A DNA stretch of 64,000 nt from Myxococcales bacterium (lineage in GTDB: Bacteria > Myxococcota_A > UBA9042 > UBA3505): assembly GCA_002728755.1 (NCBI GenBank), contig PBVT01000008.1, forward strand, positions 5,189-69,188, read 5' to 3'. Positions 9,531-61,209 of this stretch are shown here, piece after piece. The notes below the pieces were generated by a model that saw nothing but the letters and a program-made list of their open reading frames with translations, did not search any database and had not been told where the DNA came from. The position numbers were made by a program, and so were the translations under genes. Each line of letters opens with the position of its first letter. The first letter of the stretch is position 1.

Positions 9531-9533
9531 CCC

Positions 9534-16871: not shown

Positions 16872-16873
16872 TC

Positions 16874-19182: not shown

Positions 19183-20123
19183 CGTCTCGAGACTGGAACA
19201 AACTCGGTGAAGACCTCACCACGCAGACCGATGGAAATGTTTGGGCCAATGAGCCCATGTCGAAACATACCTCATGGCGAACAGGTGGTCCGGTTCGTGC
19301 TTTCGTAGAACCCAAAACTGCCGAAGGGTTCGAATCGGCTCTTTCCTGGGTACGAGAGCAGAATATCGACCATATCGTCCTTGGAGCCGGCTCCAACGTC
19401 TTATGGGCCGACCAACCGTACGCGGGCGTTGTTCTTCATACCGAGACCGCATTAGACGACCTCGTATTTCTTTCCGATGACACAATGAAGGCTGGAGCCG
19501 GGGTTCGACTGAATCGGATTCTAACACACGCCATGGATAAGAATCTGGGCGGCTTTTCGTTCATGTATGGAATACCTGGCACCGTGGGCGGCGCAGTGCG
19601 CATGAACGCCGGTACAAGCATTGGTAGTATGGCGGACGTTCTTATCGACGCTCTCGTCATGGATGGCACCGGCAATTCCAGTTGGATCGAGAAAGCAGAG
19701 TTAGAGCTGGAATATCGGTCGAGTAATCTGGGCCCGGACGATGTCGTGCTGGAGGCCCGTCTCCAATCCAATGGGCCGTTCAGCGACGAAGAAAAATCCG
19801 CCCTGAAGAAGGCAAAAGAATACCGACGTGCAACACAACCTCTGCAGTTCCCGAGTGGTGGAAGTGTCTTCAAAAACCCACCTGGTCATAAAGCTGGTGC
19901 TCTAATTGAACAAGCGCAGCTGAAGGGGCGACGCGTCGGCGGCGCCGAGGTGAGCTCTCTCCACGCCAACTTCATCATTCAGGACGGAAGCGGTACCAGC
20001 GATGACATCCGCCAATTGATCCGAGAAGTACAGGCGGAAGTCTTCCGGGTTCACGAGGTCTGGCTCGAACCAGAAGTGCAATTCCTGGGCCCCTGGTCGA
20101 AGGAGGACACGGATGGGACGTAA
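19179..20123 (+). CDS. murB: UDP-N-acetylenolpyruvoylglucosamine reductase MurB
   Basis: An FAD-binding PCMH domain is followed by a MurB C-terminal domain. It follows murG directly with no murC in between. Confidence 0.85.
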   Translation: MTSRDWNKLGEDLTTQTDGNVWANEPMSKHTSWRTGGPVRAFVEPKTAEGFESALSWVREQNIDHIVLGAGSNVLWADQPYAGVVLHTETALDDLVFLSDDTMKAGAGVRLNRILTHAMDKNLGGFSFMYGIPGTVGGAVRMNAGTSIGSMADVLIDALVMDGTGNSSWIEKAELELEYRSSNLGPDDVVLEARLQSNGPFSDEEKSALKKAKEYRRATQPLQFPSGGSVFKNPPGHKAGALIEQAQLKGRRVGGAEVSSLHANFIIQDGSGTSDDIRQLIREVQAEVFRVHEVWLEPEVQFLGPWSKEDTDGT

Positions 20124-21018
20124 GAGCCAGAGGAAAAACCGACGCCAAACAAGCGTCTTCAAGCGAGTCCAGGGCGGTGGATATGTGCTCCTCCTGAGTT
20201 TTCAACGAGTACTCCCGGGCCTGCTCCTCTTTGTAACGATGGCGGCCTTACCCTGGCTGGGGCATGCCTCGTGGAAGTATTTGACCCACAGTCCGTTCTT
20301 TGAGATCCGCCACGTCGTCGTTCGCGGAAATCATCACGTACCCACGAAAAATGTACGGCAGATCATCGCAGACGTCAGTGGCGAAAACGTCCTCAAGCTC
20401 GACAAAGATCGTATTGCATCTGCCCTGATCGCGACCGGCTGGGTAAAGCGTGTCGACATCTCAAGAGATCTGCCACGAACCGTATACATCGACGTACAAG
20501 AGTTTGTGCCCGTGGCTACCATCGTTACGGATGGGATTCACCTTATCGAAGCAAGTGGGGATGTCTTCCGGACTATCGAACCGAAAGACCCGATCGTTCG
20601 CCCCATGATCACCGGCATTACGCATGTCGATCCAGAAATCCAATACCAACTGATCCGGCGCGCCCTGATTCTCGCCGAATCCTATAAGCAAGCCGGGATG
20701 AATCGTTTCGACCCACTAACGATCATACATCACGATCCTGCCCGGGGCTTTGCCCTCGTCACCGAGCAACATCGAGTCGTGGCCTACATCGGACACGAAG
20801 AATTCGCAAAAAGAATTCAAAAACTTCGCTTTGTGATCGACGACGCTTTACGTCGTGGAAAAGGGGTGCCGGGAACCATTCATGCAGATCTTGGGGACCA
20901 ACGTGTGGTGGTAAAACCAAGAATTTCTAATTCCGCGACTCAAAAACCCAAATTCGCGACCGATTTGGGAGAGAAGAGTCCCGGTCCAAACCAGCTCGCA
21001 CATAAGAGAAAACTGTGA
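20113..21018 (+). CDS. ftsQ: cell division protein FtsQ/DivIB-like (TM + POTRA)
   Basis: A basic N-terminus, one TM helix and a POTRA-like region, in the position between murB and ftsA. There is no ddl gene. Confidence 0.6.
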   Translation: MGRKSQRKNRRQTSVFKRVQGGGYVLLLSFQRVLPGLLLFVTMAALPWLGHASWKYLTHSPFFEIRHVVVRGNHHVPTKNVRQIIADVSGENVLKLDKDRIASALIATGWVKRVDISRDLPRTVYIDVQEFVPVATIVTDGIHLIEASGDVFRTIEPKDPIVRPMITGITHVDPEIQYQLIRRALILAESYKQAGMNRFDPLTIIHHDPARGFALVTEQHRVVAYIGHEEFAKRIQKLRFVIDDALRRGKGVPGTIHADLGDQRVVVKPRISNSATQKPKFATDLGEKSPGPNQLAHKRKL

Positions 21019-21060
21019 AAACGAATCGAAGCGCTAAGACCTTACGTAGAGGAAGACCAA

Positions 21061-22296
21061 ATGGGACGTAGAGATGACTTTGTAGTCGGACTCGATATCG
21101 GCACACGCCACGTACGAGCAGTCGTGGCAGAAGCTGACGAGAAAGGCGTACATATTACCGGTATTGGGCAGGCCGACGGCCTGGGCCTCCGTGGAGGCAC
21201 GGTGGTAAACATAGAATCCACCACCCGAGCAATTCAGAAAGCGATCGACGACGCCGGCCGTATGGCTGGGTGCGAAGTCGGCCGTGTATACGTATCTGTC
21301 GGTGGACAACACCTGGAAGGATCAAACAGCCAGGGTGTAGTCGCAATCAAGGATGGCGAAGTCTCCGAAGATGATCGGGACCGAGTCCTCGACGCTGCAC
21401 GAGCTATCAAGCTCTCCTCCGATCGTGAATTCCTGCAGATGTTACCGCAGAAATTCCGAGTCGATGATACGGAAGGAATCCGTGACCCCATCGGTATTAC
21501 CGGTGTGCGGCTAGAAGCCAGGGTACATGTGATTACAGGGGCAAAAGCTAGCCTTCAAAATCTGCGCCGCTGCGTCATCCAGTCTGAGCTCGACATCGCA
21601 GGAATCGGAGCAAGCCCATTAGCTGCTAGTTCCGCTACGCTCTATGACGACGAGAAGGAATTGGGCGTCGTTCTGGTAGATATCGGTGCCGGAACCACAG
21701 ATGTATCCATCTGGCACGATGACGCCCTGGTCCATACGGCCGTACTACCCTTTGGGGGCAATCACGTAACGAGTGATGTCGCCTTTGGTCTGCGCACGCC
21801 GAGAGCCGAGGCCGAACGTATTAAATGCCGGTCCGGTTGTGCTACGGTTCACCTGGTTGATGAGGAAGACATCATTGAAGTCCCCTCTGTCGGCGGTCGC
21901 CAACCCACGGAACAGAGTCGTCAGTTCCTCGCAGAGATTATCGAACCGCGTGTCTCGGAAATTCTCGAGATGGTGCGCGAAGAGGTTCGAAAGTCCGGTT
22001 ACCAGGAGCTGCTCGCCTCTGGAATCGTACTTACTGGCGGCACAGCAAATCTCGAAGGGATCTCCGATATGGCAGAAGAGATCTTCGGGACGCCCGTACG
22101 AATTGGGGTCCCTGAGAATATCTCTGGGCTCAAGGATATGGTCGCCGACCCGTCCTTTTCCGTTGCGGTCGGTCTAGTAAAGCACGGCTTCGCCGCTGCC
22201 GAGTCCGCCCAATTCGAAGCCTATCGGCGTTCACAGAATAGTCCCATGAACTGGCTCGGAGAGCGAATGCGGCGAGTTGCTTCGATTTTCTTTTAA
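21061..22296 (+). CDS. ftsA: cell division protein FtsA (actin-like ATPase)
   Basis: An actin/HSP70 fold with the DIGT phosphate-1 motif and a C-terminal amphipathic tail. Confidence 0.85.
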   Translation: MGRRDDFVVGLDIGTRHVRAVVAEADEKGVHITGIGQADGLGLRGGTVVNIESTTRAIQKAIDDAGRMAGCEVGRVYVSVGGQHLEGSNSQGVVAIKDGEVSEDDRDRVLDAARAIKLSSDREFLQMLPQKFRVDDTEGIRDPIGITGVRLEARVHVITGAKASLQNLRRCVIQSELDIAGIGASPLAASSATLYDDEKELGVVLVDIGAGTTDVSIWHDDALVHTAVLPFGGNHVTSDVAFGLRTPRAEAERIKCRSGCATVHLVDEEDIIEVPSVGGRQPTEQSRQFLAEIIEPRVSEILEMVREEVRKSGYQELLASGIVLTGGTANLEGISDMAEEIFGTPVRIGVPENISGLKDMVADPSFSVAVGLVKHGFAAAESAQFEAYRRSQNSPMNWLGERMRRVASIFF

Positions 22297-22410
22297 CTTT
22301 CTTCGTCGTGTTCTTTCGGAGTTGCCGGACTCCATAGCAAAGAATGCGACCCAACTTTCAATGGCAAAATGCCAATCAAAAATTCCTGATAGCACGGGGA
22401 GGAGATTTCC

Positions 22411-23676
22411 ATGATTACGATTGAATGCCAAAGTAACGCCAAGATCAAAGTGATCGGCGTTGGTGGTGGAGGCGGAAACGCCATTAACAACATGGTTGAA
22501 GGCGAACTCCAGGGAGTGGAGTTCATAGCCTGTAATACCGATGGACAAGCGCTGGAGAACAGCCACGCCGACGAGAAGCTACGTCTCGGCGAGAAATTGA
22601 CTGGAGGCCTTGGCGCAGGCGCCGACCCACAGATTGGTTGGAAGTCGGCAATGGAAAGCCAGACCAATATCGCGGGCCTCCTTGACGGGTCCGATATGTG
22701 TTTCGTCACCGCTGGCCTTGGTGGTGGTACGGGAACAGGGGGTGCCCCTGTAATCTGTCAGGCCGCCAAGGATATGGGTATCCTTACGGTTGCCGTCGTG
22801 ACCATGCCTTTCTCCTTCGAAGGAGCCCGTCGTCGTAAGAATGCGAATATGGGCTTGGATCAGCTTAAGAAATGCGTCGACACCCTCATCGTGATTCCGA
22901 ACGACCGACTGATCGAGATCGCGGATGATAATATGACGATGCTAGACGCCTTCAAATGCGCCGATCATATCCTGCTCTCCGCAGTACGTGGAATCAGTGA
23001 CATCATCGTAACGCCAGGTCTCATCAATGTGGACTTTAAAGATGTCCGCTCCATCATGATGGACGGTGGACTCGCGCTGATGGGACAAGGTCGCGCCAGC
23101 GGAGAAGGTCGCGCACTGGCAGCAGCGCAGGCGGCAACATGTAGCCCATTATTGGACGGTGTAAGCCTTCACGGTGCCACCGGCATCCTGGTCAACATCA
23201 CCGGTGGACAGGATATGACCCTTCGTGAGGTCAACGACGCCATGAGTTACGTCCAACAGGAGGCTCACCCGGAGGCTAATATTATCTTCGGTTCGGTTGT
23301 GAATTACGCACAGCATGACGAAGTCAGCGTAACCGTTATCGCCACAGGTGGAAACGAAGCGCGTACTGAGGTGAGCGACAACACGGAAGAATATGTCTTT
23401 GAGACTATGACGCAACCTACCCGTCTGCAGGCCCAGCAAGAGACGAGCCTGCCAACGGTACAGAACGCGTTTGAGCTTCCGGCCACACAACGGCGAGGCG
23501 CTAAACTTCGCGGTGCGCCGTCCCAGGGTCTGGATATGAGTACCGGTAATACCTCATCTCCCGCTCCTCTGACGGAATCACCGAACGTCGAGGCGATGAT
23601 GTCTCAAAACGAGAGTGAATACGACACTCCAGCGTTTCTTCGTCGGCACAAGGATGTGCAGGACTCGACGAAATAA
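22411..23676 (+). CDS. ftsZ: cell division GTPase FtsZ
   Basis: The tubulin signature GGGTGTG is present, together with the conserved C-terminal peptide DTPAFLRR after a long variable linker. Confidence 0.95.
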   Translation: MITIECQSNAKIKVIGVGGGGGNAINNMVEGELQGVEFIACNTDGQALENSHADEKLRLGEKLTGGLGAGADPQIGWKSAMESQTNIAGLLDGSDMCFVTAGLGGGTGTGGAPVICQAAKDMGILTVAVVTMPFSFEGARRRKNANMGLDQLKKCVDTLIVIPNDRLIEIADDNMTMLDAFKCADHILLSAVRGISDIIVTPGLINVDFKDVRSIMMDGGLALMGQGRASGEGRALAAAQAATCSPLLDGVSLHGATGILVNITGGQDMTLREVNDAMSYVQQEAHPEANIIFGSVVNYAQHDEVSVTVIATGGNEARTEVSDNTEEYVFETMTQPTRLQAQQETSLPTVQNAFELPATQRRGAKLRGAPSQGLDMSTGNTSSPAPLTESPNVEAMMSQNESEYDTPAFLRRHKDVQDSTK

Positions 23677-46449: not shown

Positions 46450-48192
46450 TCAGAAGGGGAGGCCAGGTATTCCGCTTCCACCGGAGCCACAAGGCAAACA
46501 GACCGGCTGTTGACCAAGCAGCGATTGGAAGAGGCTCTCAAAGTCGCCACCACCCGAGGTGAGGGCGCAGAGCAGAGCCTGGGTTTGATCCTGTACACAG
46601 CTCAAACCTGAAGGACATTGCGCATCACCCTGGGCCGGATCACATACACAGAAGCCTGGGATACCTGTTCCACCGAGAAGCTCGGGGGGAATCGGCACGC
46701 CGCCTCCAGCAGCATCTAGCAGAGTCGCGCACTCACCAGACGGGCACATGGCCGTTACGCCATCGCACTTACCGCCCGGATCAACACATGCTCCGGATGC
46801 AGGATCACAGATCATGGGTGCACCATCAAAGGGACTCGGAGGACAATCCGCATCTGTATTGCATTGTCCTACTTGTGTGGTACCGCCCTGGCACGTGAAT
46901 GTAGCCGCATCACAGGTGCCACCAATACTTACACAGTAGGAGTCATCATCCGCGCTACATTGTACGCACGTAAGCTGACCACCAACCTCTGCACAAGCCG
47001 GATATGGATCCTGGCATACATCACAGATGTCACTGGAGCAGGTGTGTGTGGTCGTATCGCACATACCACTGGCACAATGGGTACCGTTCAAGCATTCGAC
47101 ACAAGCGCCCTCGTAAAGGAACGGTGTTGGATCGGAGCAGCTCGAACCTTCACATTGGTTCGTGTTCGGGTCACAAGGACCAGCACCGACAGGACAATCC
47201 GAATCGGTCAAACACTGGACACATTGGCCATCAACACAGATGGGTTGGTCCGCAGCACAGTTGCAAGCGGCGCATTGCGCACCATAGCAACAGGTACCGC
47301 CGAGGAAGCCACATACCTGACGACCTTCGACCGAAAGACTGCAGCTGCTGTTCTCGGGGCACGCGTTGGATTGACCACATGCTGGAGCACAGACACCGAC
47401 AGAAGAGCCGTCCGGACGGTAGCAGAGAGACGAACCGTCGCCACTGCACTGATAGTCCAGCTGGCATGCACCGCAGGTAGATATCGCTGACGTGCACTGA
47501 CCATTACCGAAATTGCAGACCTGACCGGCGGGACAACCATCCACGACACAGCCGGAACACTTGTTCGAATATGGAACACATTGCTTACCAGCCGCGTTGG
47601 TGGCCTGCAGACATTTGAAACCGATTGAACAATCGGCATCAGCATTGCAGCCGGCCGTACAGGCCAATCCACTACTAAGCGGTGTACAAGAGTCGTTGGG
47701 ACCACCACAGTCCGTGTCATTGGTACAGGAGTCACAGATGAAATCTCCGTTGGAAGCTGGCTTGCACTCGCCAGTCAGCTCGTCACAGACATCCGTCCCC
47801 TGGCATCCAAGCTCTACACAGGATGCGGTTGGGTCCACGCAGAGACCATTCTCACAAATGCCTTCGGGACATTCATCATCCGACAAACATTGTGGAGCCG
47901 TGCCATCTGGAATACATACGCCTCCCAGAGACGAATTCGTTACCTCACTCGAACAAACATAACCATCGGGACATTCAGGGCAGCCCGCACAATCACATTC
48001 GACTTCTTCACAGGTCGCCTGGCCGTCGCCATTCACATCTACACAGACCTGACCTTCTTCACAATCGGCCAAACCAGAACAGGGTGCAGCCTGGCTGCCT
48101 GTCCCCGAATCGTCGCCACCGCAAGCAACCAACATACTCGCCAAAAAACTAGCGGCTACAACCAATCGAAACACTTTCATTAAACCTTGCAT
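46450..48192 (-). CDS. cysteine-rich repeat lipoprotein (Myxococcales-type Cys-rich repeats)
   Basis: A signal peptide with lipobox (LVACGG). The protein is about 17% Cys, arranged in repeated CxxGxCxxC / DxDCxxxxxC modules, with Gly/Asp-rich spacers. Confidence 0.55.
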   Translation of the reverse strand: MQGLMKVFRLVVAASFLASMLVACGGDDSGTGSQAAPCSGLADCEEGQVCVDVNGDGQATCEEVECDCAGCPECPDGYVCSSEVTNSSLGGVCIPDGTAPQCLSDDECPEGICENGLCVDPTASCVELGCQGTDVCDELTGECKPASNGDFICDSCTNDTDCGGPNDSCTPLSSGLACTAGCNADADCSIGFKCLQATNAAGKQCVPYSNKCSGCVVDGCPAGQVCNFGNGQCTSAISTCGACQLDYQCSGDGSSLCYRPDGSSVGVCAPACGQSNACPENSSCSLSVEGRQVCGFLGGTCCYGAQCAACNCAADQPICVDGQCVQCLTDSDCPVGAGPCDPNTNQCEGSSCSDPTPFLYEGACVECLNGTHCASGMCDTTTHTCSSDICDVCQDPYPACAEVGGQLTCVQCSADDDSYCVSIGGTCDAATFTCQGGTTQVGQCNTDADCPPSPFDGAPMICDPASGACVDPGGKCDGVTAMCPSGECATLLDAAGGGVPIPPELLGGTGIPGFCVCDPAQGDAQCPSGLSCVQDQTQALLCALTSGGGDFESLFQSLLGQQPVCLPCGSGGSGIPGLPF

Positions 48193-48343: not shown

Positions 48344-51300
48344 ATGTTCAAAGTTTGGCTCCAATCGTGGATTCGCTTCTCTATGAAGCACCCCTATGCG
48401 GTCGTATTTGTGACCCTGGCTTTGAACGCAGTTCTCGGTTACGAAGCCGTAAGCCGGTTTGCTATCCGGAGCGACATCGCCGATCTTCTCCCTGAGGATC
48501 GGGAACGGGTCTCCAACCATCGCTGGGTGCAAGCGCATACGGGTGCACCGGAGATCATCGAGGCGATCTTGATGCCTCGAGAGCCGGAACCCGACCGCCT
48601 CCTTATTCTGGAGGGGCCAGGAGAAGGCACCAGTCGTGACATAGGACAGGTGACAACGACCCCAGAGGGAATGACGATTCGGTTCCGAAGCCCGTTATTC
48701 TCCGAAGATGGGAGTTACGAAAAAGTACGCTTTGGGTTTCTTCCTCGAGCTGGGGACCAGAACGCATGGAACCACATTGAATTTTCTGGTGAGCTAATCC
48801 AGAAAGGAAAAAACGTACAGTTTCGGGTCGCCCCTACTCCTTCTAGCCATAAGCTGACCATGGAGGAGTTAACGAGCCGTATTCGCGCTGGAGATCCCAA
48901 CGGAGACGGTCGCTTCGAGATCGATCACGCGAAAAAAGCGCTACGTATCCTAGCCCGAAAGCTTACTGATCTATCCATGATCGACTACGCGATCGCACAA
49001 GTCCCCATTCGCTATTTCCAGGAAAACGCGGTCTTATTTGCGCCCAAATCTGATCTCCAGTTGGTGAAATGTTGCATCGTCTGGAAACAAAAAGAAGCGA
49101 TTCGCCGCGATATGGGCATCAACAATGATGCGGACAGCGCTATCGAAGACGAGGAGGAAGAAGAGGAAGATGACGATCCCTTCTTAACGGATAGTAAGCC
49201 AGACGCCGATCCCGACTGCGCAAACCAGGATATCAGCGAAGACACCTGTACTTTTGAACGGATCTCCACCACACGCGGGGTCATCCGAAATATACCGGAG
49301 TATTTCATTTCGAAACTCGGCTACCTGGCCATCTTCATCAAGCCGAGCTCTCCCTCAACAGATTTCGAGCTGAACCGAACAACGCAACGAGATGTTCGTG
49401 CCATGGTTCAAGCAACACTTCTGGAAAACAACGAAGAGCTCGGACGCTCTCTTGACCCAGAGTCTCTGCAGCTTGGTGGCGGATATGTATACAACCAGGA
49501 ACAGATTCTTCAGACGCGTCGAGATCTTGGTCTATCCGTAATCATCACGGTCGCGCTCCTATTCTTCATCATTATCTTTTATTTTCGGCGAACACGGGCT
49601 CTATGGCTTGTACTCCTTCCTCTGATTCTCGGAGTCTTATGTTCCCTTGGGCTTACCTTTCTCACGATCGGTTATCTGAACATCATCACCGCGTTCATCT
49701 TTGCCATTCTGTTGGGATTAGGCGTGGACTTTGGTGTTCATATTATGAACCGGTACGTAGAGGAGCGCGCCATCGGTAAATCCATAGAAGAGGCTCTGAT
49801 GCGTGCGCTGGGCAGTACCGGCTTCGCTACATCGGTCGGCGCCCTGACGACTACAATCACGTTCCTTACTCTCAGTCTGACATCGTTTCGAGGCTTTAGT
49901 CAGTTTGGAATCATCGCCGGTATGGGAGTTCCCCTATGCCTGTTCTTTGTATTCATACTTCTCCCTCCTCTCACGCAGCTCTTTGAGCGCTGGAGGCCGG
50001 TCAAATGGGTGGTCCGTGGAACTGGGCACCCTGGCAAAGAACCCCGCCTACTGCAGTCCATGCTCAAGCCCAAAAACGCTCTACGAGTGACCATGGTTGT
50101 TTCTGGTATCGGGCTACTGTCCTTGATCGGCGTAAACACCCTTGAGTTTGAATACGACACACGGAATGCGAAGTCGATCAACCCAAGAATGGAAGCCGTT
50201 CAGAAAAACAAATCTGGTTCCACCAGTGGGCTCCCCCTATCACCAGGCATCGCGCTGGCGAAAAGCCAGAGTCAGGCCAACACCATCTACCGGACATTCC
50301 GGCAGGTCCTGAACACAGACAAACAAATCAAGCTGCTTCGAAAACACGGGGGACTGAGCTTTCTCCGACCACGGCTATCCACTGTAAAGGCCGTCATCAG
50401 CGCAAGCCGATTGATCCCTGAAGAACAGCCAGAAAAACTTCGCCTTGCCTGTGAAATCCACACTCTGCTTCGAAAGAAGCGAGACTTTCTGGATGACTCG
50501 TCGAAGCAAAAATATGTGGACCAGCTCATGGACCAGACACGCCTATGCGACCCAGAAGCCTGTCCTGGTGTACTCGCTAGCGGCGACGACAAATGCCTCC
50601 AACCCATCGCCGTGGATGCTCTGGACCCCAGCATCCGCCGTTTCTTTGACGAAAAACCCCGCGCACTCAGCTACGACGTCGACCCGTTGGAACCCCAGAA
50701 CATCCTGGCCGGATTTTTCCGCTGGATGGGCGTCCACCAAGCCGAGGTTCAGACACCCAAGAAACGCAGACATGGAACCTTTGTATATGTCTTCCCGGGC
50801 TCGAATATGTACGACGTTCGAAACAATGTCGCCTACACGAAAGAGCTGGAAAGCCTACGGATTGTGGAGTCCGCCCCCTCTGGTAAGACGACAGAATCGA
50901 AACTCATTCTAAGCTCCAGCCATGTCATCTTTGCTGACGTCTTCGAGGTCGTGAAAGAAGACGGTATCAAGGCGTGCAGTATTGCGTTCTACACGGTCTT
51001 TATACTCGTTCTTCTCTATTTCGCCTTCCTGGCTCGAACAAGGCGCCGGTATCTGCTCGCCCTTATAACGGCCCCTCTCCCAATTGAAATATATCTTCTG
51101 CAGAGCGCTGGGTATATCGCCCCCATGCACTCGGCCTCCGCCTTCATTCTAGCGGCGATTGGTGTCTTTCTTCTGGTGATGCTGATCGACCGACAGAGCG
51201 CCTATCACGCCTGTCTCGTCTTGGCTCCCCTGGCCTTGAGCTTCGTAATCCTTCTCGCCTCCATGGGGATTATTGGCTGGCGCATCAACTTCTACAATAT

Positions 51301-51637
51301 GATCGTCTTCCCAATCATTCTTGGCATCGGCGTAGATAGTGGAATTCATATCTATCACCGGTTCATAGAAGACGGGGAGCACAATATCCTGAATATTGTG
51401 CGCCATACTGGCGTAACCATCGGGGTCGCAACCTTGACCACGTCCATCGGGTTTGGAGCTATGTTGGTGGCCAATCACCTGGGACTTCAAAGTATTGGTA
51501 AGGCAGCATTGCTAGGACTCTCCATCACATTTGTGAACGCGGTCGTCTTTCTTCCGTGCCTTTTACGCGTACTGATGAAGTACAATCGTATTCCGGAAAT
51601 CCGACGCGCTCAGCCCACGGACTCCTCCGTTGTGTAG
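48344..51637 (+). CDS. RND-superfamily MMPL-type transporter (two 6-TM bundles with large periplasmic domains)
   Basis: A 1097-aa protein with two clusters of TM helices (about 430-560 and 920-1080) of RND/MMPL/SSD topology. It also carries a poly-acidic insert EDEEEEEEDDDP. Confidence 0.7.
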   Translation: MFKVWLQSWIRFSMKHPYAVVFVTLALNAVLGYEAVSRFAIRSDIADLLPEDRERVSNHRWVQAHTGAPEIIEAILMPREPEPDRLLILEGPGEGTSRDIGQVTTTPEGMTIRFRSPLFSEDGSYEKVRFGFLPRAGDQNAWNHIEFSGELIQKGKNVQFRVAPTPSSHKLTMEELTSRIRAGDPNGDGRFEIDHAKKALRILARKLTDLSMIDYAIAQVPIRYFQENAVLFAPKSDLQLVKCCIVWKQKEAIRRDMGINNDADSAIEDEEEEEEDDDPFLTDSKPDADPDCANQDISEDTCTFERISTTRGVIRNIPEYFISKLGYLAIFIKPSSPSTDFELNRTTQRDVRAMVQATLLENNEELGRSLDPESLQLGGGYVYNQEQILQTRRDLGLSVIITVALLFFIIIFYFRRTRALWLVLLPLILGVLCSLGLTFLTIGYLNIITAFIFAILLGLGVDFGVHIMNRYVEERAIGKSIEEALMRALGSTGFATSVGALTTTITFLTLSLTSFRGFSQFGIIAGMGVPLCLFFVFILLPPLTQLFERWRPVKWVVRGTGHPGKEPRLLQSMLKPKNALRVTMVVSGIGLLSLIGVNTLEFEYDTRNAKSINPRMEAVQKNKSGSTSGLPLSPGIALAKSQSQANTIYRTFRQVLNTDKQIKLLRKHGGLSFLRPRLSTVKAVISASRLIPEEQPEKLRLACEIHTLLRKKRDFLDDSSKQKYVDQLMDQTRLCDPEACPGVLASGDDKCLQPIAVDALDPSIRRFFDEKPRALSYDVDPLEPQNILAGFFRWMGVHQAEVQTPKKRRHGTFVYVFPGSNMYDVRNNVAYTKELESLRIVESAPSGKTTESKLILSSSHVIFADVFEVVKEDGIKACSIAFYTVFILVLLYFAFLARTRRRYLLALITAPLPIEIYLLQSAGYIAPMHSASAFILAAIGVFLLVMLIDRQSAYHACLVLAPLALSFVILLASMGIIGWRINFYNMIVFPIILGIGVDSGIHIYHRFIEDGEHNILNIVRHTGVTIGVATLTTSIGFGAMLVANHLGLQSIGKAALLGLSITFVNAVVFLPCLLRVLMKYNRIPEIRRAQPTDSSVV

Positions 51638-51694: not shown

Positions 51695-53035
51695 ATGTCC
51701 GGAGTCGTATCTGTGCGACAGAAATACAAGCTCCTAAAAAAGATCGACGTCGGTGGAATGGCGGAAATATACCGGGCCAACCTGGTGTCGATGAAGGGGT
51801 TCGAGAAGGAAGTGGCGATCAAAAAGGTCTTGCCCAACCTCACTCGAAATCGCCGCTTTGTATCGATGTTTCTCGATGAGGCTCGCCTCTGTATGAACTT
51901 GACCCATCCGAATATCGTCCCGGTGTTTGATGTCGGCCGTTCCGGCGACGCCTACTTTATCGTGATGGAATTCGTGAACGGGACCAATCTGAAACGATTG
52001 TTTCGGAAGTTCTCGGAGCGAGGACAGTCGATGCCCCTGCACCTGGCGGCCTTTACGGTAGCGGAGATACTGAAAGGCCTCGCCTACGCACACGAGTCGA
52101 CCGACGCATCGGGCGATCCTCTGAACATTGTGCACCGTGATGTGAGCCCTCCGAATATCCTCATCTCGCAGAATGGCTACGTAAAACTTACGGACTTCGG
52201 ACTGGCAAAAGCATCCACGCAATTGCTCGCGACCGACCCGGGAATGGTCAAGGGAAAGTTCTCCTACCTGGCACCTGAGACGGTTTCCGGTAACGCGCCT
52301 GACCATCGTACAGATATCTTTTCGGCGGGTATCATACTTTGGGAGCTGCTGAGTGGACGGCGACTCTTTGTGGGGCGAACGCATGTAGAGACGGTCGAAG
52401 CGGTTCGTAACTGTAATGTTGTCCCCATCAGTCAGCTCAATTCGGAGATCGACCCCGAATTCGAAGAGATATTGAATAAAGCACTGCATATGTCGCCGGA
52501 GGAACGGTACCAGAGTGCCCGCGAGTTCGGTGATGCGATTACCAGCTATCTGTTCTCCCATGGGTTGAAAGTAACCAATTTCGACATGGCCGAGTTCCTG
52601 ACGAGTCTTGGTGAAACCACACCGATCGAAATCGACGACGAGCAGATTGCGACACTCATTGAGGACGAGCTGCTAACGCTCTCCGTGATGGGGCTCTATA
52701 TCCCTGGTGACGAGATGGAGGGCACAAGCCCATTACACCCCGATGTGCTCGATTTGAAAGACGGCGTCTTCGAGTTGGACGACATTTTCGACGACATACC
52801 ACCTGAAACTCCTGACGAAACCAATGCAGAGGGGCAACAGAACCCTTTGGGAGCAGCCCCCACCGGTGACGCCACCGCCACGGCCTCGGAGAACACCGCC
52901 TCGAACGCAGACGATGACTTCGACGATTCGGATGATGAGCTGGTCTGGATATCCCCCGGACTGGTCGCGTTATTGGCTATGGCCGGAAGCGCGGCGGTTG
53001 CTGCGATTGCCTATCTGGTGCTGAACCTGGGCTGA
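51695..53035 (+). CDS. Ser/Thr protein kinase with C-terminal acidic region and TM anchor
   Basis: Hanks kinase motifs (GGMAEIY, AIKK, HRDVSPPNILI, DFGLAK, APE) and a C-terminal hydrophobic segment LVALLAMAGSAAVAAIAYLVL. Confidence 0.8.
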   Translation: MSGVVSVRQKYKLLKKIDVGGMAEIYRANLVSMKGFEKEVAIKKVLPNLTRNRRFVSMFLDEARLCMNLTHPNIVPVFDVGRSGDAYFIVMEFVNGTNLKRLFRKFSERGQSMPLHLAAFTVAEILKGLAYAHESTDASGDPLNIVHRDVSPPNILISQNGYVKLTDFGLAKASTQLLATDPGMVKGKFSYLAPETVSGNAPDHRTDIFSAGIILWELLSGRRLFVGRTHVETVEAVRNCNVVPISQLNSEIDPEFEEILNKALHMSPEERYQSAREFGDAITSYLFSHGLKVTNFDMAEFLTSLGETTPIEIDDEQIATLIEDELLTLSVMGLYIPGDEMEGTSPLHPDVLDLKDGVFELDDIFDDIPPETPDETNAEGQQNPLGAAPTGDATATASENTASNADDDFDDSDDELVWISPGLVALLAMAGSAAVAAIAYLVLNLG

Positions 53036-53048
53036 TCCCCAATTCAGC

Positions 53049-55292
53049 TCAATCGTCTGTCCGTGGAAGAGGCCAGCTTCCTGGAACCTCTAGCTCACGA
53101 AGCTCATCGAGCTCCTCTCCATGAGACTCGCCCGAATCGATCTCGAACAACTCGATCTCTTCGCCATGCATATTTTCGTCGAGTTCACCACGGCGCCTCT
53201 TTTCTTCCTGCTCTTTACGCTCTTTCCGCTTCAACTGCGCGAGTCGCTTTCTGCTCATCGATTTATAGATAACCGGTCGATCGTTCTTGATCTTAAAGGT
53301 ACGCCACCACAAGAAATGTACCGGGTGGAAATGGTAAAGAACTCCTTTCCAGGGCTTCTGCTCTAGACCAATATGCTTCGCTGTATCTTCCGTCAGCCAG
53401 ATGAACGGTATCATCTCTTCCAGCACCCGCAGATAGGCCGATTCGGCCTTCAGACGTTTCGGGCCCCGCATCAAGGACCGTAAGCGTGACTTCACCTCCC
53501 CCCAGTTCTTCGGTGATCCCTTATCGGGGTCCTCAAAGAGGGCTCGGAACCAATCGACCTGATCGGACCACTCCGAAACATGTCGTGTAGCCGCCGCCCG
53601 CATTCTTTGCAGAGCCGGACCAGGCTCAGAGTCGTAGAAGTCCATAATCTCATCTTCGTCGAGGATTCGACGATCCAATCCTCGACCCCGGAGTCTCGCT
53701 CCGGGCCGGAAGTCGGCCAAGACCCTTTTGGAACGCACGAGAAGTGAACGTTCCAGGTCCTCTGAAACCATTTCAAAATAGCGTCGGTGGCCCCCTCCTG
53801 AGACCGCCTGCGTCCATTGGGAGTCCGTAAAGATCTCTACATGGACGAGCTCCTCTCGCTCGTCTTCGGTTCCCAACTCACCACTAAAGCCAATCGTGGT
53901 ACCGGCCGTAACCTGAATGGCTTTCTTCCCCCCAGGTTTGAACATGGCCACCTTACCTTCACGCAAGGCCTGTAACGAGCCCTTCGTAAACATAAGGATC
54001 GGGTTGCGCCGTTCCGTCTCGTCGGATTCGGAGTCCCTATCATCCGTATCTCTACTATCTGCTCTCTCCTTCTTTGCTCCAGGCTTGGCTGCGGCGGCCT
54101 CCGCTTCCAGCATAGTACGTAACCAGTCTGGCTGTTCCGTTTTGGAGTCCATGGAGAACGTCAGCGGTCCTAGATGCATATAGAGAGAGTAGAACCGTAG
54201 AGTCTTTTCGTCTTCGTCCGGTCGAGCCGGCATGGGCACTTCATGACGAAGCACCACAAAGTTGTTGCTACCACGAACGGTAGGATCATCCGAAAAGTGT
54301 GCCAAGACCAGTGTACCGGAAAACATCGCCTGTACGGGAGTTCCCCGCTTCACGAAGAAATGTGTTCCACCATGCCAGTTTTGATACCGGCCAACCGGGT
54401 AGGTTCCACCTTTCCGAGCCGTCTCCGTATTGCGGTAATACTGCTCAGCAGCCGCACGGAATTTCTGAGGATCACGAAGCTCAGTCATGCTTCGAGGAAC
54501 CCCGGAGAGCGGTATGGGGAACGAATTCTGGGTATCGCTGATGGCGGCCATCACCCGGTCCCAGTCGAAGGCCGGGCCCGGATCCCACTTCTCAGCGCTC
54601 AGATGCCAATGGGCTAAAAGCCCCTTAAATGAATTGGCATCGTCTTCTTCCAGAATGTTCAGACGAACCTCACCGTTCTCACCCAGGGGAACATTCTTGG
54701 GGATATCCAAGCTCCCCATGAGCTCCGTCAGCAGCGCGATAAGCGCCTGATATTGTGCGTCGGTATAGCCATAGGAGCGGTATTGCACACCATTGATACG
54801 TACCGGGGGCGACGGGCCATCTCGCTGCTGACGACGACCATAGGTGTGCCCTTCCTTTGGAGTTCTGAGCAGGTTATGGGCGACATGGTTGAGATCGATA
54901 CCGATGCTGCGATCGTTCGCTTCACCGGCGTGAACCGCCTTATATTCCACATCAAGGGTCTGGTAGATGGTCCCGTCAGAATCAATCAAGAAATGTGTCG
55001 AAAGACCACGTCGTTGCAGCACATCGACCGCACCTGCAGAGGTATGAGTGACATCCCAATGGAGTATGATCTGGCTTATAGCGGCCTTCAGATCTTCCAG
55101 GGAACCGACGCGGCCATCCGGACCCTTTCGAGCCCCCCATCCTCGACCGGGATTGGAGATTGGATCCGATAGATATTGGGCCGTCCCCAGGCGCTTCAGG
55201 TCCAGGCTACGCTTATCCTTCCAGGTCACAACTCCGTTCGGAGCCCCTTTAACCTCGTGCTTCTGACCCATGATGTAGATGTGGTTGTCCAC
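53049..55292 (-). CDS. multidomain peptidoglycan hydrolase: N-acetylmuramoyl-L-alanine amidase (amidase_2/PGRP) + split M23 (LytM-like) peptidase + charged C-terminal region; no signal peptide
   Basis: Amidase_2 motifs (HWDVT...HAGEANDRSIGIDL, HWHLSAEKWDPGPAFDW). M23-like motifs WHGGTHF..GTPV, YSLYMHL and GFSGELGTEDEREELVHVEIF are separated by an acidic insert, and the second motif is H-poor. The C-terminus is Lys/Arg/Glu-rich. Confidence 0.65.
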   Translation of the reverse strand: MDNHIYIMGQKHEVKGAPNGVVTWKDKRSLDLKRLGTAQYLSDPISNPGRGWGARKGPDGRVGSLEDLKAAISQIILHWDVTHTSAGAVDVLQRRGLSTHFLIDSDGTIYQTLDVEYKAVHAGEANDRSIGIDLNHVAHNLLRTPKEGHTYGRRQQRDGPSPPVRINGVQYRSYGYTDAQYQALIALLTELMGSLDIPKNVPLGENGEVRLNILEEDDANSFKGLLAHWHLSAEKWDPGPAFDWDRVMAAISDTQNSFPIPLSGVPRSMTELRDPQKFRAAAEQYYRNTETARKGGTYPVGRYQNWHGGTHFFVKRGTPVQAMFSGTLVLAHFSDDPTVRGSNNFVVLRHEVPMPARPDEDEKTLRFYSLYMHLGPLTFSMDSKTEQPDWLRTMLEAEAAAAKPGAKKERADSRDTDDRDSESDETERRNPILMFTKGSLQALREGKVAMFKPGGKKAIQVTAGTTIGFSGELGTEDEREELVHVEIFTDSQWTQAVSGGGHRRYFEMVSEDLERSLLVRSKRVLADFRPGARLRGRGLDRRILDEDEIMDFYDSEPGPALQRMRAAATRHVSEWSDQVDWFRALFEDPDKGSPKNWGEVKSRLRSLMRGPKRLKAESAYLRVLEEMIPFIWLTEDTAKHIGLEQKPWKGVLYHFHPVHFLWWRTFKIKNDRPVIYKSMSRKRLAQLKRKERKEQEEKRRRGELDENMHGEEIELFEIDSGESHGEELDELRELEVPGSWPLPRTDD

Positions 55293-55295
55293 GGA

Positions 55296-56939
55296 TCAGC
55301 CTCCCTTCCCGAATAACTTCTTTATGAGCTTCACAAAGCCCTTGCCTATCTTGAGGAAGAGCTTCAGGCCAATGAACAATAAAAGCATCCCCAGTACGAC
55401 CAGAACAATATTCGCCGGCCAACGACCAATCTTATTTTGTAACCAGCCCTTAAAGCGGTGAAATCTAGCGACGAGACCACGATCCACACGAGGAATCGTC
55501 GCCGACATCCAGTCGGTCTTGGAGATATTTCTCCTATCCCCGATTACCGAGGCCGCAAGTCGAACCTCTAGCGTCTCTCCTTCTAGAAATTTGTCGGCAC
55601 CTGTTGGCCGGAGATCGATCACCAGACTGGAAGTAAGTTCCGTAATGGCCGCTCGAGCCTCCTTCACAAAAGAATCCCCTGAATCCGCCATTCGGAAGGT
55701 GCCACCACTCTTATTGCTGAGTAGGCGCATACGTTCGACCACATAGGAATCGGCAGATGGTAACAATACGGTCTGAAGGCGTATTTGATTCGCCCGCAGC
55801 AGCGGAAGAAGAGTTGTCGCTTTCTCCAGGAACGGCTCTTGTTGAATCGTCCCCACGGCCTTCGCCATACGTCTGGATATGCACTTCTTCTGGCAGCGAC
55901 GACGCGCTTTCTTTTTCGAGATTCCGGCTTCACGCCGCTCATTCGTCACACACTTGTCCGTCGCCCCCTTATCTTCTCGACAGGTGGCTGCTATGGAATC
56001 CTGACACCTGGCGAGGGTCTGCGTATATCCATCAACACCATCCCCCAGATATACCAATAACGAGTATCCTCCCGGACGCCGGTAGCGAGTAAGCAGCTCC
56101 GCCGCCACGTCGATTCCACCCGTGCGCACACGCTTCTCAAGTTCTTCATCATCCAGTGGCGAGCGGTTTTCGGGATCCCGACGATCGCGGCTATGAAAGA
56201 CTTTGGGGGTTGCGTTCGGGCAATACCTCCACGGTAATCCAAGAATCGATGGATACTGGCCTTCAAAACTGGCTTCACCGCTTTCTTCAATAGCGGTCTC
56301 CAGGTCCTTCCATTCCCCAACGAGACCACAGGGATGCACAGCCTTGGAGACTCCCTTCTTGGCAACCTCGTTATAAAAATCAACATCCGCCTTCCGACAG
56401 AATTGGTGAATTTCCGTTTCACTCTGCACTTCCCAATAATCCGTGAACTCCGCGCCCCGGTCCGGATGCGCCACAAAATAATGAAGGCCATCTGTAACCC
56501 AGATGAGATTGACCCGCGCCGAGCCAGGCAGCTCCTTAAAAATTTCGGAGACTGCACTTCGAATGTAGCCCTGGGCTGCGCTGTCCATGTCCTTGTGGGC
56601 GCTTACGACCAGAACAACATCCAAGGGAAGTTCCTGGTCTGCAAAAGACGCGATCTCCGATTCAAAATGCGTAGGGGCCAGATCAATAAATGTCTCCAGC
56701 ACCTGTCCTCTCTTTGCGCCTTCCGTTCGGACTTCCACATCGAGCTGGAGAAGATCTTCATCCATTAGCATGGGGACGCGTCCGTCTTCGGATAGAAAAC
56801 TGGCAATCACACGAAGTCCGCGCCCAGACCGATTTTCCAACTTGAGGATCCGCCCCATGGTGGGCCCGGCGTACGCCTGGGCAATGCCACTGATGGCCAA
56901 AAGAGCCAATACTGCGATGCGAACAATCAGCCGAAGCAT
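55296..56939 (-). CDS. secreted vWA-like domain protein with Cys/Lys-rich module and cationic amphipathic C-terminal TM anchor
   Basis: A signal peptide MLRLIVRIAVLALLAISGIAQAYA. Rossmann-like segments (DVVLVVSAHKDM, LLVYLGDGVDG) suggest a degenerate vWA domain. The C-terminus reads IVLVVLGMLLLFIGLKLFLKIGKGFVKLIKKLFGKGG. The gene is 3 nt upstream of the hydrolase gene. Confidence 0.45.
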   Translation of the reverse strand: MLRLIVRIAVLALLAISGIAQAYAGPTMGRILKLENRSGRGLRVIASFLSEDGRVPMLMDEDLLQLDVEVRTEGAKRGQVLETFIDLAPTHFESEIASFADQELPLDVVLVVSAHKDMDSAAQGYIRSAVSEIFKELPGSARVNLIWVTDGLHYFVAHPDRGAEFTDYWEVQSETEIHQFCRKADVDFYNEVAKKGVSKAVHPCGLVGEWKDLETAIEESGEASFEGQYPSILGLPWRYCPNATPKVFHSRDRRDPENRSPLDDEELEKRVRTGGIDVAAELLTRYRRPGGYSLLVYLGDGVDGYTQTLARCQDSIAATCREDKGATDKCVTNERREAGISKKKARRRCQKKCISRRMAKAVGTIQQEPFLEKATTLLPLLRANQIRLQTVLLPSADSYVVERMRLLSNKSGGTFRMADSGDSFVKEARAAITELTSSLVIDLRPTGADKFLEGETLEVRLAASVIGDRRNISKTDWMSATIPRVDRGLVARFHRFKGWLQNKIGRWPANIVLVVLGMLLLFIGLKLFLKIGKGFVKLIKKLFGKGG

Positions 56940-57406
56940 GGTAACGCTCGCAGGTGAAAGGCTTTCATCCAGGAACTAGACCACGGTTGGCCCTCCTCGC
57001 CGTCCGGGTGCAAACTAACCGCCAACTCGTACTGTCCAGGAACCCAACGCTCCTCTGGCAGATCCAAGATAAGAGACAACCCATTCTTCGAGTCCGTCCA
57101 GCGGACCTCATCCACTATCGCTTCTAGATCGTCTTTCACACGTCGAACCCGAAGGGTTGCCGCTCCCTGCTTCCAGGAAGAAGGCAACGTAAGCTCAACA
57201 CGGCCACCTGGCCACCCCTCCCAGGCGACCAATACCGGCTCTTCACGTACACGTAAAAGATGGACAACCAGCCCGCCCGCCACCACGCCGACCGGAGCCG
57301 CTCCGAGAGCGAATCGGAGAAAGCGTCGTCGCCCCACATCGACCGAGTTGGATCCGAGTTCCGATTTCATGGGATCAAACATCCCGCGAATACCCAACGA
57401 ATGCAA
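56927..57406 (-). CDS. small hypothetical protein with Tat-like signal (GRRRFLRFALGAAP)
   Basis: It overlaps the downstream gene by 13 nt. The start is uncertain, with candidate Met codons at 57406, 57382 and 57370. Confidence 0.4.
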   Translation of the reverse strand: MHSLGIRGMFDPMKSELGSNSVDVGRRRFLRFALGAAPVGVVAGGLVVHLLRVREEPVLVAWEGWPGGRVELTLPSSWKQGAATLRVRRVKDDLEAIVDEVRWTDSKNGLSLILDLPEERWVPGQYELAVSLHPDGEEGQPWSSSWMKAFHLRALPCFG

Positions 57407-58950: not shown

Positions 58951-59706
58951 GTGGCGTTGACCTATCAGAAACCCACTCCCTATAATCCAGCGCATATGAC
59001 GGACGATAACAATCAGAACGGCTCCAATGGAAGCGACGGCCTGGATGATATCCTGAAGCGTGCTTCTGCCGACGCCTCGCGAGAAAGGGAAGAGATCGAA
59101 GCGAAGCTTAAGGCCGAAGCAGCGGATCGGGAAGCCCAGGAGAAGGCCGACCTCGAGCGCCGACGGCAAGACTTGTTGGAACAGCGAGAAGACGCTATCC
59201 GCAAACGTCAAAGTCAGCTCATGAACCAACCGGAGATGCAGTCGCTACAAACAAGCTCTCCCGAGGCATCTACAGAGCGTGTGGTTCCTGCTGACGATTT
59301 AGGCTTTGGCCAACAGAAAATACGATTAATGGCTGCCATCATCGGGTTGACCGCGATCGTAGCGGTTTCCGCTGTCATCTTCATCCCCAAGGAGAAGAAG
59401 CCTGCCCCGGAAGAACCCAACCCCACTGCGAACCAGGTAGATACAAGTAGTTCTGCCGCGGATGTCACGTCCACCAAGAAAGAAGATGCCACGGTTACTG
59501 TTACCGATGCTCCGAGCGCCAGTGCAGAGACTGTCCAGAGCCAGGCGGATAGTGGAACCGACACCAAAGAGATCATCAGCGAGCCAAAAAAGAAAAAGGC
59601 CACGAAAAAGCGTCGACGTGCACGAACCAACAAGAAACCACGAAAGAAGCCTGTAAAACGTCCACGCCGAAAGAAGATTCAGATCGACGACGATGATTCC
59701 TTTTGA
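58951..59706 (+). CDS. hypothetical bitopic protein: acidic coiled-coil N-terminus, TM helix, Ser/Thr-rich segment, extremely Lys/Arg-rich C-terminus
   Basis: A TM helix LMAAIIGLTAIVAVSAVIFI. The C-terminus reads KKKKATKKRRRARTNKKPRKKPVKRPRRKK. The gene lies 28 nt upstream of the AAA ATPase gene. Confidence 0.4.
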   Translation: MALTYQKPTPYNPAHMTDDNNQNGSNGSDGLDDILKRASADASREREEIEAKLKAEAADREAQEKADLERRRQDLLEQREDAIRKRQSQLMNQPEMQSLQTSSPEASTERVVPADDLGFGQQKIRLMAAIIGLTAIVAVSAVIFIPKEKKPAPEEPNPTANQVDTSSSAADVTSTKKEDATVTVTDAPSASAETVQSQADSGTDTKEIISEPKKKKATKKRRRARTNKKPRKKPVKRPRRKKIQIDDDDSF

Positions 59707-59733
59707 TGGATTGGACCATAGGGTTGAACCGGC

Positions 59734-61209
59734 ATGACACAAGCCAATAACGACCTTCTTCAGGCCCTTGCTGATATCGATCGTATTGTCCTTTTACAGG
59801 TACAGGACGAGCGCTATGCCCAAGAGGCCGTTCAAGGCTGTGCAGAACAATTGGGCTGTTCCTGGACGACCTGGGATCTGGGTTCGGACGGGGCCGAAGA
59901 GGATCCCTTACAAAGCCTCAACCAATATATAGACACCCATAGCGGCGATTGGATTTTGTCCTTTGACCTGGCCGACCGGATATCCGACCCCGTATTTGCA
60001 CGCCAATTGATTCAACGTTCGAAGGCGTCGGACGGCCCCGTACTCATTATCGCGGTGGACGGCCCCCGTCCTGCTCCAGCTCTCCAACCCTATGTCCGAT
60101 TCGTAAAGCTACCCGTTCCTTCCATAGAAGACACGATTCAACGGGTCATCCGGGGCTTAAAGAATACGGGCTGGAAAGAACCCAAGAAGGATAAAGAGTT
60201 ACCGGTTCGCCTCGCCCGGCTCGTTCGAATGATGCACGGCTTATCCCTCACTCGACTCGACCGAACCGTCCAACGACTGGCGAATCAAGACCCAATGCTT
60301 GGAGAGAAAGCACAAGAGCTGGTCCAGCAAGCTCGCCGAGAACAACTGCACGACCTGGAATTCCTCGAGATGATCGAGAATACACCGTCGGAAAATCAGA
60401 TTGGTGGTCTAGAAGTGCTGCAAGAGTGGCTTCATCGACGAAGACGCGCGACACAGCTGGGTGTATTGCAGCGAACCGTTCCCCCTCCTCGGGGCATGTT
60501 ATTGGTCGGTGTCCCCGGTTGTGGAAAGAGTCTCGCGGCACAGGTTAGCGCAAGTGTTTTTCAGGTACCTCTACTCCGACTGGAGTTCGGTAGACTTCGT
60601 GGAAACACCGAAGGTCCCGAGCGGCGGCTTCTCCGTTGCCTGGCAGAAGCCGATAAAGCAGCACCATGCGTTCTCTGGTTGGACGAGATCGACCACGCCC
60701 TCGGAACCGTTGCCACGCACCAGGAAAATCAAGGATTGGTGGGGACATTAACGTCCTGGCTCCAGGAGCATGAGACGGAAGTCTTTGTCGCAGCGACAGC
60801 CAACCGAGTCGAAATGCTACCACCGGAGCTGGTTCGAAAAGGACGTTTCGACGAGATCTTCTTTGTCGATCTGCCGAACCGCACCGAGCGAGCTGACATC
60901 TTACGGGTTCACCTTCGCGCCGTAGAAGAAGACGCAACCTCCATCGATGTAGATAAGCTCGCCGAATCCACGGCCCAATACACCGGGGCCGAGCTGGAGG
61001 CGATTGTTCGGGAAGCGAAGATTGAAGCCACTCTCTCCTCCAGTGCTCTCACAACAGAGGTGATAATGGATGTGGTGAGCCAGATCGTGCCTCTCGTTCG
61101 AACCCATGAAAAGGAAATCCGGCATCTAAGGGAGTGGGCTACATACCGTGCACGTTCGGCTTCTACGGATACGGGCGTCTTGGCCTTTTTCGATTCCAAC
61201 GACGAATAG
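59734..61209 (+). CDS. AAA+ ATPase (classical AAA clade) with uncharacterised N-terminal domain
   Basis: Walker [10 protein letters not shown], Walker [10 protein letters not shown] and the second region of homology [27 protein letters not shown]. The first ~240 aa (N-terminal domain) match no known family. Confidence 0.75.

Follow-up and report, generated by a model that had tools for sequence, protein, structure and literature searches.

A variant M23 domain fused to an Amidase_2 domain in a conserved three-gene cassette of uncultured Myxococcota

A 747-residue predicted peptidoglycan hydrolase from a Myxococcales bacterium (GenBank assembly GCA_002728755.1, contig PBVT01000008.1) joins an Amidase_2 domain to an M23 domain in which the usual metal-binding and catalytic motifs are altered. 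We analysed it within a 64,000-nucleotide stretch of that contig (positions 5,189 to 69,188 of the forward strand), which we call the window and to which coordinates refer unless another locus is named. Judged from sequence conservation, the odd M23 motifs are a fixed trait of a distinct protein family and not decay, because they are conserved family-wide under strong purifying selection and because the domain gives a full M23 match once an insertion is removed. M23/LytM domains usually belong to one of two classes, catalytic (HxxxD and HxH) or degenerate regulator, and this family fits neither. The hydrolase is encoded at the end of a tightly coupled cassette, and the reading that we favour, which seems to us about equally likely to hold or to fail, is that it is a two-site peptidoglycan hydrolase that is exported with a twin-arginine translocation (Tat) partner and remodels the cell's own wall.

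From its N-terminus the protein comprises an N-terminal region, the Amidase_2 domain, a split variant M23 domain, a C-terminal domain and a charged tail. It has no cysteines, no transmembrane segments and no signal peptide. The gene and the parts that carry the M23 argument lie as follows.

53049..55292, minus strand: hydrolase open reading frame, 747 amino acids, GTG start
54153..54407, minus strand: N-terminal half of the M23 domain, residues 296-380, holding WHGGTHF (306-312) and YMHL (371-374)
54372-54374, minus strand: H307, metal-ligand position 1 (codon checked)
54360-54362, minus strand: H311, metal-ligand position 2, in place of the Asp of HxxxD (codon checked)
54174-54176, minus strand: H373 in YMHL, position of the separate catalytic His (codon checked)
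53928..54152, minus strand: M23 insertion, residues 381-455; helix, charged loop predicted to be disordered (403-427), structured and conserved segment (about 433-452)
53808..53927, minus strand: C-terminal half of the M23 domain, residues 456-495, with VtaGttIGfsGelG and then ELVHVEIF (480-487)
53847-53849, minus strand: L482, where the first His of HxH belongs (codon checked)
53841-53843, minus strand: H484, metal-ligand position 3 (codon checked)
53835-53837, minus strand: E486, invariant (codon checked)

This open reading frame is a real gene, because it has more than 120 full-length homologues (730-830 residues) and low pairwise ratios of nonsynonymous to synonymous substitution rates (dN/dS). 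Compared with an 88%-identical orthologue, dN/dS was 0.04 over the whole hydrolase and 0.21 for the insertion, and the amidase, the C-terminal domain and the two halves of M23 lay at 0.02-0.05; these figures are a rough guide to constraint because dS is saturated (1.4-3.2). An identical protein is present on marine metagenome contigs and in the metagenome-assembled genome (MAG) GCA_002377445.1. When one genome per species was scanned, 112 related loci came up, and 78 were retrieved as distinct; nearly all bear the label of Myxococcota, Myxococcales or 'Deltaproteobacteria' MAGs, and cultured strains are not among them. So far the family is confined to uncultured, mostly aquatic, Myxococcota.

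Motif counts over 117 full-length homologues define the variant signature. The first M23 motif reads HxxxH in 113 of them and HxxxD in one, MHL is kept in 111 (in one family alignment H373 does not vary), and about 108 keep the last ligand His. Two positions before that last His stands L, Q, V, M or A, and never His. The signature extends to remote proteins that carry the same C-terminal domain: WHxGxH is found in 61 of 65 and the variant signature elements in 50-61 of 65, and the first HxH position is occupied by a residue other than His in 52 of 53 remote relatives and by His in one. The one C-terminal-domain protein seen with a canonical HxH, P0165 (726 residues), reads HVHLEVF there alongside WHGGIH, and may be an evolutionary intermediate between the canonical and variant sites. 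In two loci, L006 (8001-12785) and L088 (4970-8956), tandem Amidase_2-variant M23 paralogues stand side by side.

The M23 fold itself is complete and is split by a variable charged loop. The native Pfam match to Peptidase_M23 (PF01551) is limited to residues 307-351 (profile positions 3-42 of 96) at 24.3 bits, under the cut-off of 28.7, and 20 of 31 aligned homologues are matched. When residues 381-455 were removed in silico, one contiguous match emerged, which scores 38.8 bits and covers positions 3-92 of the 96 in the profile. The spacing between H373 and H484 is 111 residues, against 33 between the corresponding residues of lysostaphin, or about 78 extra. An AlphaFold model of the whole hydrolase (predicted local distance difference test score, pLDDT, 77; predicted template-modelling score, pTM, 0.62) places the M23 core at a pLDDT of about 85-95. 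Foldseek with this model recovers Csd1/Csd2, lysostaphin and AmpD, and for the M23 fold the matches to Csd1/Csd2 (5j1l, 5j1k) and lysostaphin (4qpb) have probabilities of 0.96-1.0. With the Pfam matches, these structural matches bear out the original prediction, made from the DNA sequence alone, that the gene encodes an Amidase_2-M23 fusion. That prediction also described an acidic insert of about 90 residues between the M23 halves. An insertion does split the domain, of about 75 residues, and it is acidic only at its centre, at about residues 409-427 (ERADSRDTDDRDSESDETERR); residues 375-465 hold 16 D+E and 16 K+R and are thus of mixed charge. Residues 403-427 are predicted to be disordered (pLDDT below 50), and the length and sequence of this loop vary across the family.

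The alignments to lysostaphin place each altered residue. In a phmmer search of PDB sequences WHGGTH aligned with lysostaphin MHYGVD, and the family profile pairs YMHL with the YMHL of lysostaphin and V.aG..IGfsGelG with VKAGQIIGWSGSTG. H373 in YMHL thereby takes the place of LytM H260. In an M23 site HxxxD supplies two zinc ligands, its His and its Asp, and HxH supplies the third with its second His; the catalytic pair consists of the other His of HxH and a further, separate His that is also conserved (PMC5053510). The unusual motifs noticed at the outset are genuine: Asp is replaced by His in HxxxD (WHGGTHF), and HxH is without its first His (ELVHVEIF). Correct alignment nevertheless finds every ligand position filled by His, with H311 in place of Asp. 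The three positions read His/His/His, and as a candidate site they probably bind metal. Some enzymes of the wider LAS group have a catalytic Glu where others have His. A His-for-Asp ligand swap is chemically plausible, since one family member has Asp and since LAS enzymes vary their catalytic residue.

Catalysis is a separate matter. In LytM the first His of HxH (His291) is reported to be crucial and the H291A mutant is inactive (PMC3046168); because that His is lost family-wide here, canonical M23 catalysis cannot be assumed. The same absence is the best argument for a second reading, in which the M23-like domain is catalytically dead and serves the fused amidase in cis, by regulating or activating it or else by binding peptidoglycan. 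The sub-threshold native Pfam score is in keeping with it, as is the frequent recruitment of LytM domains as regulators. Yet the three ligand positions and the catalytic His are about 95% conserved under strong purifying selection, unlike the metal-free degenerate LytM domains, and the variant M23 is found also in proteins without any amidase. Moreover, the known LytM activators act on Amidase_3 and not on Amidase_2. We consider a dead regulatory domain improbable. The proposal that this is a degenerate module of the EnvC/NlpD kind is not supported, as H307, H311 and H484 are ligand-competent and H373 is retained; the analogy with EnvC/NlpD activators also fails because the client enzyme here would be an Amidase_2. 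For the same reason a self-contained activator-amidase lacks support, and what the variant M23 travels with, as the next domain makes clear, is not the amidase.

53283..53807, minus strand: C-terminal domain, residues 496-670, with invariant H571-x-S573-E574-W575 (RHVSEWSDQVDW), W632 and H656-P657 (HFHPVHF)
53052..53282, minus strand: charged tail, residues 671-747, modelled mostly at low confidence, a basic helix and then an acidic stretch

Residues 496-670 have no match in Pfam, NCBIfam or PDB sequences, and sequence and profile searches of this domain against the PDB gave nothing meaningful. A profile built from it finds 149 clusters among 1.84 billion representatives, and wherever enough upstream sequence exists the domain is always preceded by the variant M23. 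The N-termini ahead of the pair are Amidase_2, Peptidase_C39_2 or of no recognised type; an SH3_3 insertion is present in some of the proteins that have no amidase. Since the pair is kept together behind different N-terminal 'heads', it forms one evolutionary module. Within the whole-protein model the C-terminal domain reaches a pLDDT of about 80-94, against 58.6 when modelled alone; as confident prediction arises only in the whole-protein context, the models suggest that this domain packs against the rest of the hydrolase. The tail beyond it ends in a conserved L..L......G(E/S)W motif.

The amidase is the more conventional half of the protein.

54573..55082, minus strand: Amidase_2 (AmpD-like) domain, residues 71-240 (Pfam PF01510, 69.3 bits against a cut-off of 26)
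55059-55061, minus strand: H78, predicted Zn ligand, aligned with AmpD H34, invariant in the family
54609-54611, minus strand: H228, predicted Zn ligand, aligned with AmpD H154, invariant in the family
54582-54584, minus strand: D237, predicted Zn ligand, aligned with AmpD D164, invariant in the family
54894-54896, minus strand: D133, at the position of the AmpD catalytic residue E116 (GIDLN against GIELE), Asp invariant in the family

Pfam Amidase_2 is matched in 31 of 31 aligned homologues, and the closest structure found by Foldseek is AmpD (2y2b, E 7.8e-8). Residue correspondences come from a profile of the amidase region aligned to AmpD and AmpDh2, in which K235, also invariant in the family, falls on AmpD K162. 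Codon positions were checked for the amidase residues listed above. The predicted ligands make the fused domain an Amidase_2 enzyme whose metal site is intact. The likeness to AmpD invites a further reading, namely that the protein works in cytoplasmic muropeptide recycling, where its AmpD-type anhydro-MurNAc-L-Ala amidase would free stem peptides and the fused peptidase would shorten them. In sequence as in structure, the amidase is indeed matched best by cytoplasmic AmpD, and the hydrolase has neither an export signal nor cysteines. However, periplasmic AmpDh2 scores nearly level with AmpD against the amidase profile, the architecture is large and multi-domain, relatives are linked to injection-system genes, and the gene is tightly and conservedly coupled in translation to those of two exported envelope proteins. 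A role in recycling appears to us very unlikely.

Those two envelope proteins precede the hydrolase in the cassette, whose genes are joined by a 13-nucleotide overlap and then a 3-nucleotide gap.

56927..57406, minus strand: small cassette protein, first gene, 159 amino acids from TTG, overlapping the gene for the 547-residue partner by 13 nucleotides
55296..56939, minus strand: upstream partner, 547 amino acids, 3 nucleotides from the hydrolase start

The small protein, which would have 147 residues if started at the ATG at 57370, carries a twin-arginine signal (GRRRFLRFALGAAPVGVVAGG) and a beta-rich domain of about 100 residues. Its only match in Pfam or NCBIfam is a weak, sub-threshold one to the Tat-signal model TIGR01409; RRxFL with a mildly hydrophobic h-region is present in about 38 of the 46 loci with a small partner. 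The 547-residue partner begins with a signal peptide, carries a periplasmic VWA-like domain that is rich in Cys (8 Cys), and ends in a C-terminal transmembrane helix and a short basic cytoplasmic tail. Nothing significant was found for it in Pfam or NCBIfam, and the hidden Markov model of its family matches a protein with a signal, VWA, transmembrane and FHA arrangement beside a distant Amidase_2-type relative (E 2e-10). About 55-60 related loci have it immediately upstream of the hydrolase, the gap being -4 to +10 nucleotides. None of the 117 hydrolase homologues has a signal peptide or transmembrane segment, nor a hydrophobic N-terminal segment. A promoter and terminator scan around the cassette returned no more than chance.

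The pattern of genes expected of Tat hitchhiking, a partner with an RR signal and a signal-less hydrolase in the same cassette, is present here. Tat exports heterodimers in which one partner only bears the signal (PMC10924467), and Tat-exported peptidoglycan amidases are known (PMC6231687). Because the hydrolase is without a signal peptide and both cassette partners are exported, the Tat-partner route is the most likely one. In the mechanism that we propose, the folded, metal-loaded hydrolase would cross the inner membrane as a passenger of the small Tat-signal protein. In the periplasm it and the VWA-like protein anchored in the membrane would act together on the wall of the cell itself, where the amidase may remove stem peptides from N-acetylmuramic acid (MurNAc) and the variant M23 may bind metal and a peptide stem or cross-link, either cleaving it or holding it as a substrate-binding site. 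If it cleaves, a substitute for the lost His would be needed, possibly from the C-terminal domain. A composite version goes further and predicts that the variant M23 and the C-terminal domain form one module around a His3 metal site, with the lost His replaced by H571, E574 or H656, and that the hydrolase hitchhikes on Tat; this combination we offer tentatively and as rather unlikely. If it were true, this would be the first wall hydrolase exported by hitchhiking and a new active-site solution in the LAS/M23 fold.

Several observations weigh against export with the Tat partner and work on the cell's own wall at two sites. The hitchhiking of the hydrolase is drawn from gene order only, and the distant Amidase_2-type locus L088 has a VWA-type partner without the small Tat protein. 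In the amidase, Asp (D133) stands in place of the catalytic Glu116 of AmpD, a conservative change that may affect activity. Any endopeptidase activity would have to do without the His whose counterpart is essential in LytM, for it is absent throughout the family. Finally, remote relatives with the variant M23 and C-terminal domain adjoin genes of another kind: in L086 a Phage_base_V (VgrG/gp5 OB) gene (3916-4377, E 7e-13), and in L090 a PAAR-like DUF4280 gene (548-910). Both relatives have N-terminal domains other than Amidase_2. Their place beside VgrG-like and PAAR-like genes suggests effector delivery, as cargo of injection systems, for at least part of the superfamily.

It is possible, then, that the hydrolase studied here is itself an antibacterial effector, a signal-less, two-headed enzyme injected into competitors or prey by a type VI secretion system (T6SS) or another contractile system, with the small protein as its periplasmic immunity factor. 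Besides the linkage of remote module relatives in L086 and L090, the uniform lack of signal peptides, the presence of two wall-degrading domains in one protein and a small exported protein in the same operon would all suit such a role. Nevertheless, vgrG, hcp, PAAR and sheath genes were found neither in the window nor in five other family loci, and synteny of the cassette is kept across about 60 loci at identities of 30-45%; it lies there among core genes, with proA-nadD-rsfS-rlmH repeatedly close by. The 547-residue gene, moreover, stands between the putative immunity gene and the hydrolase. The accessory proteins of the remote relatives in L090 and L085 (about 540 and 135 residues) were considered as homologues of the Myxococcota partners and rejected, as hmmsearch gave no signal and hhalign a probability of 0.4%; the similar sizes are accordingly a coincidence. 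We regard delivery as an effector as a real but fairly unlikely alternative to export with the Tat partner.

A Ser/Thr protein kinase with a C-terminal transmembrane segment is encoded convergently to the hydrolase (51695-53035, plus strand), the two stop codons lying 13 nucleotides apart, and the VWA-type partner in L088 has, on its cytoplasmic side, an FHA domain, a type that binds phospho-Thr. These two features make it conceivable that a kinase controls the cassette.

The surroundings are otherwise those of a core chromosome, and include the dcw cluster, clpP, ctp and comEC; secretion-system, T6SS and phage genes were looked for in the window and none was found. A phage origin of the hydrolase was rejected: a tblastn search with the part formed by the variant M23 and the C-terminal domain gave no match in 50,697 phage records, and the window has no phage genes. 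Of the neighbouring features, the dcw cluster (8176-23676, plus strand) runs mraZ, rsmH, a TPR protein gene, ftsI (with a PASTA domain), murE, murF, mraY, ftsW, murG, murB, ftsQ, ftsA and ftsZ; murD, murC and ddl are absent from their usual positions, so that ftsW comes directly after mraY and murB after murG. A 1097-residue MMPL/RND-type membrane protein (48344-51637, plus strand) has a large extra-membrane region with a poly-acidic run (EDEEEEEEDDD). A 580-residue protein (46450-48192, minus strand), whose gene adjoins that for CvpA (colicin V production), has no Pfam match and a weak NCBIfam match to the Cys-rich repeat model Myxo_Cys_RPT (TIGR04201) at 18.6 bits, below the cut-off of 25. 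Neighbouring DUF1552 (HXXSHH) and DUF1595/1592/1588/1585 (PSD/PSCyt) proteins are encoded at 1958-5568 (minus strand). At 58951-61209 (plus strand) a gene for a 251-residue protein without a significant family match precedes one for a 491-residue AAA+ ATPase, and this pair is kept beside the cassette in the closest relatives, L001 and L002.

What makes the family worth pursuing is the combination that selection has maintained: a ligand-competent set and one catalytic His under strong constraint, two changes that have become fixed, and an obligatory domain that has been acquired. An active variant M23 would extend a major class of wall hydrolases and lysin scaffolds by a new catalytic form; an inactive one would be a LytM module that retains its metal. 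The cassette in turn raises the question of the route taken by a signal-less wall hydrolase, be it Tat hitchhiking, injection or none. As all its members are from uncultured Myxococcota, the family may be relevant to predation by these bacteria or to how their walls are remodelled.

Among known systems, lysostaphin and LytM are the natural reference for the variant M23. They share with it the fold, the framework motifs G..V.A...G.V and V..G..IG..G..G, and the first and last ligand His and the separate catalytic His in register. The variant differs from them in having His for the Asp ligand, a variable residue for the first His of HxH, and a 75-residue insertion between the catalytic His and the last strand-turn; the hydrolase as a whole differs in its obligatory C-terminal domain and in being without a signal peptide.

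The factors EnvC, NlpD, DipM, Csd2 and SpoIIQ resemble the hydrolase in their non-canonical M23 motifs and, in a loose sense, in their association with amidases. AmiA, AmiB and AmiC, which factors of the EnvC/NlpD type serve, belong to Amidase_3. The clients of degenerate LytM factors are Amidase_3 enzymes or other proteins, met in trans in the periplasm, whereas here the amidase is an Amidase_2 and is fused. The factors also bear export signals, and the 117 members of the hydrolase family do not. EnvC/NlpD-type factors activate AmiA/B/C by displacing an autoinhibitory helix (PMC10268282). Degenerate LytM domains such as those of Csd2 and SpoIIQ have lost their metal ligands and bind no metal (PMC5053510), while in the variant M23 the ligand positions are filled and conserved.

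The amidase domain and AmpD/AmpDh2 are alike in fold, Pfam match, His-His-Asp ligands and the Lys before the Asp. The hydrolase domain is about 21% identical to AmpD and differs from it by about 40 extra residues, the Asp for Glu116 and two further fused domains. Tat-exported wall amidases and hitchhiker pairs offer a parallel for the cassette, namely a folded metallo-hydrolase and an operon partner with a canonical RRxFL signal. The Tat amidases AmiA and AmiC, however, bear their own signal, which the hydrolase does not, and the complex proposed here is a predicted one. To our knowledge, Tat hitchhiking of a peptidoglycan hydrolase has not been described.

Similar in overall plan are phage lysins that combine M23 and Amidase_2, such as the Gordonia phage GMA6 lysin and the Arthrobacter phage Tweety19 endolysin, which unite both folds in one signal-less protein. 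Lysins of this type are the best whole-protein structural matches in a viral library, over 591-645 aligned columns. The hydrolase departs from them in its variant active site, its core chromosomal context, its different domain order and partners, and the lack of a phage sequence match to its variant M23 and C-terminal part. In the literature on HxxxH variants of M23, on DUF4280 with M23, and on amidases and M23 proteins of Myxococcota, we found no description of this family. Its parts, in short, are of known kinds, from Amidase_2 and M23 to the Tat and VWA partners, and actinophages have two-headed lysins of M23 and Amidase_2. The novelty lies in the fixed M23 site with its His-His-His positions and lost His, in the C-terminal domain that always goes with it, and in a conserved cassette whose hydrolase has no signal.

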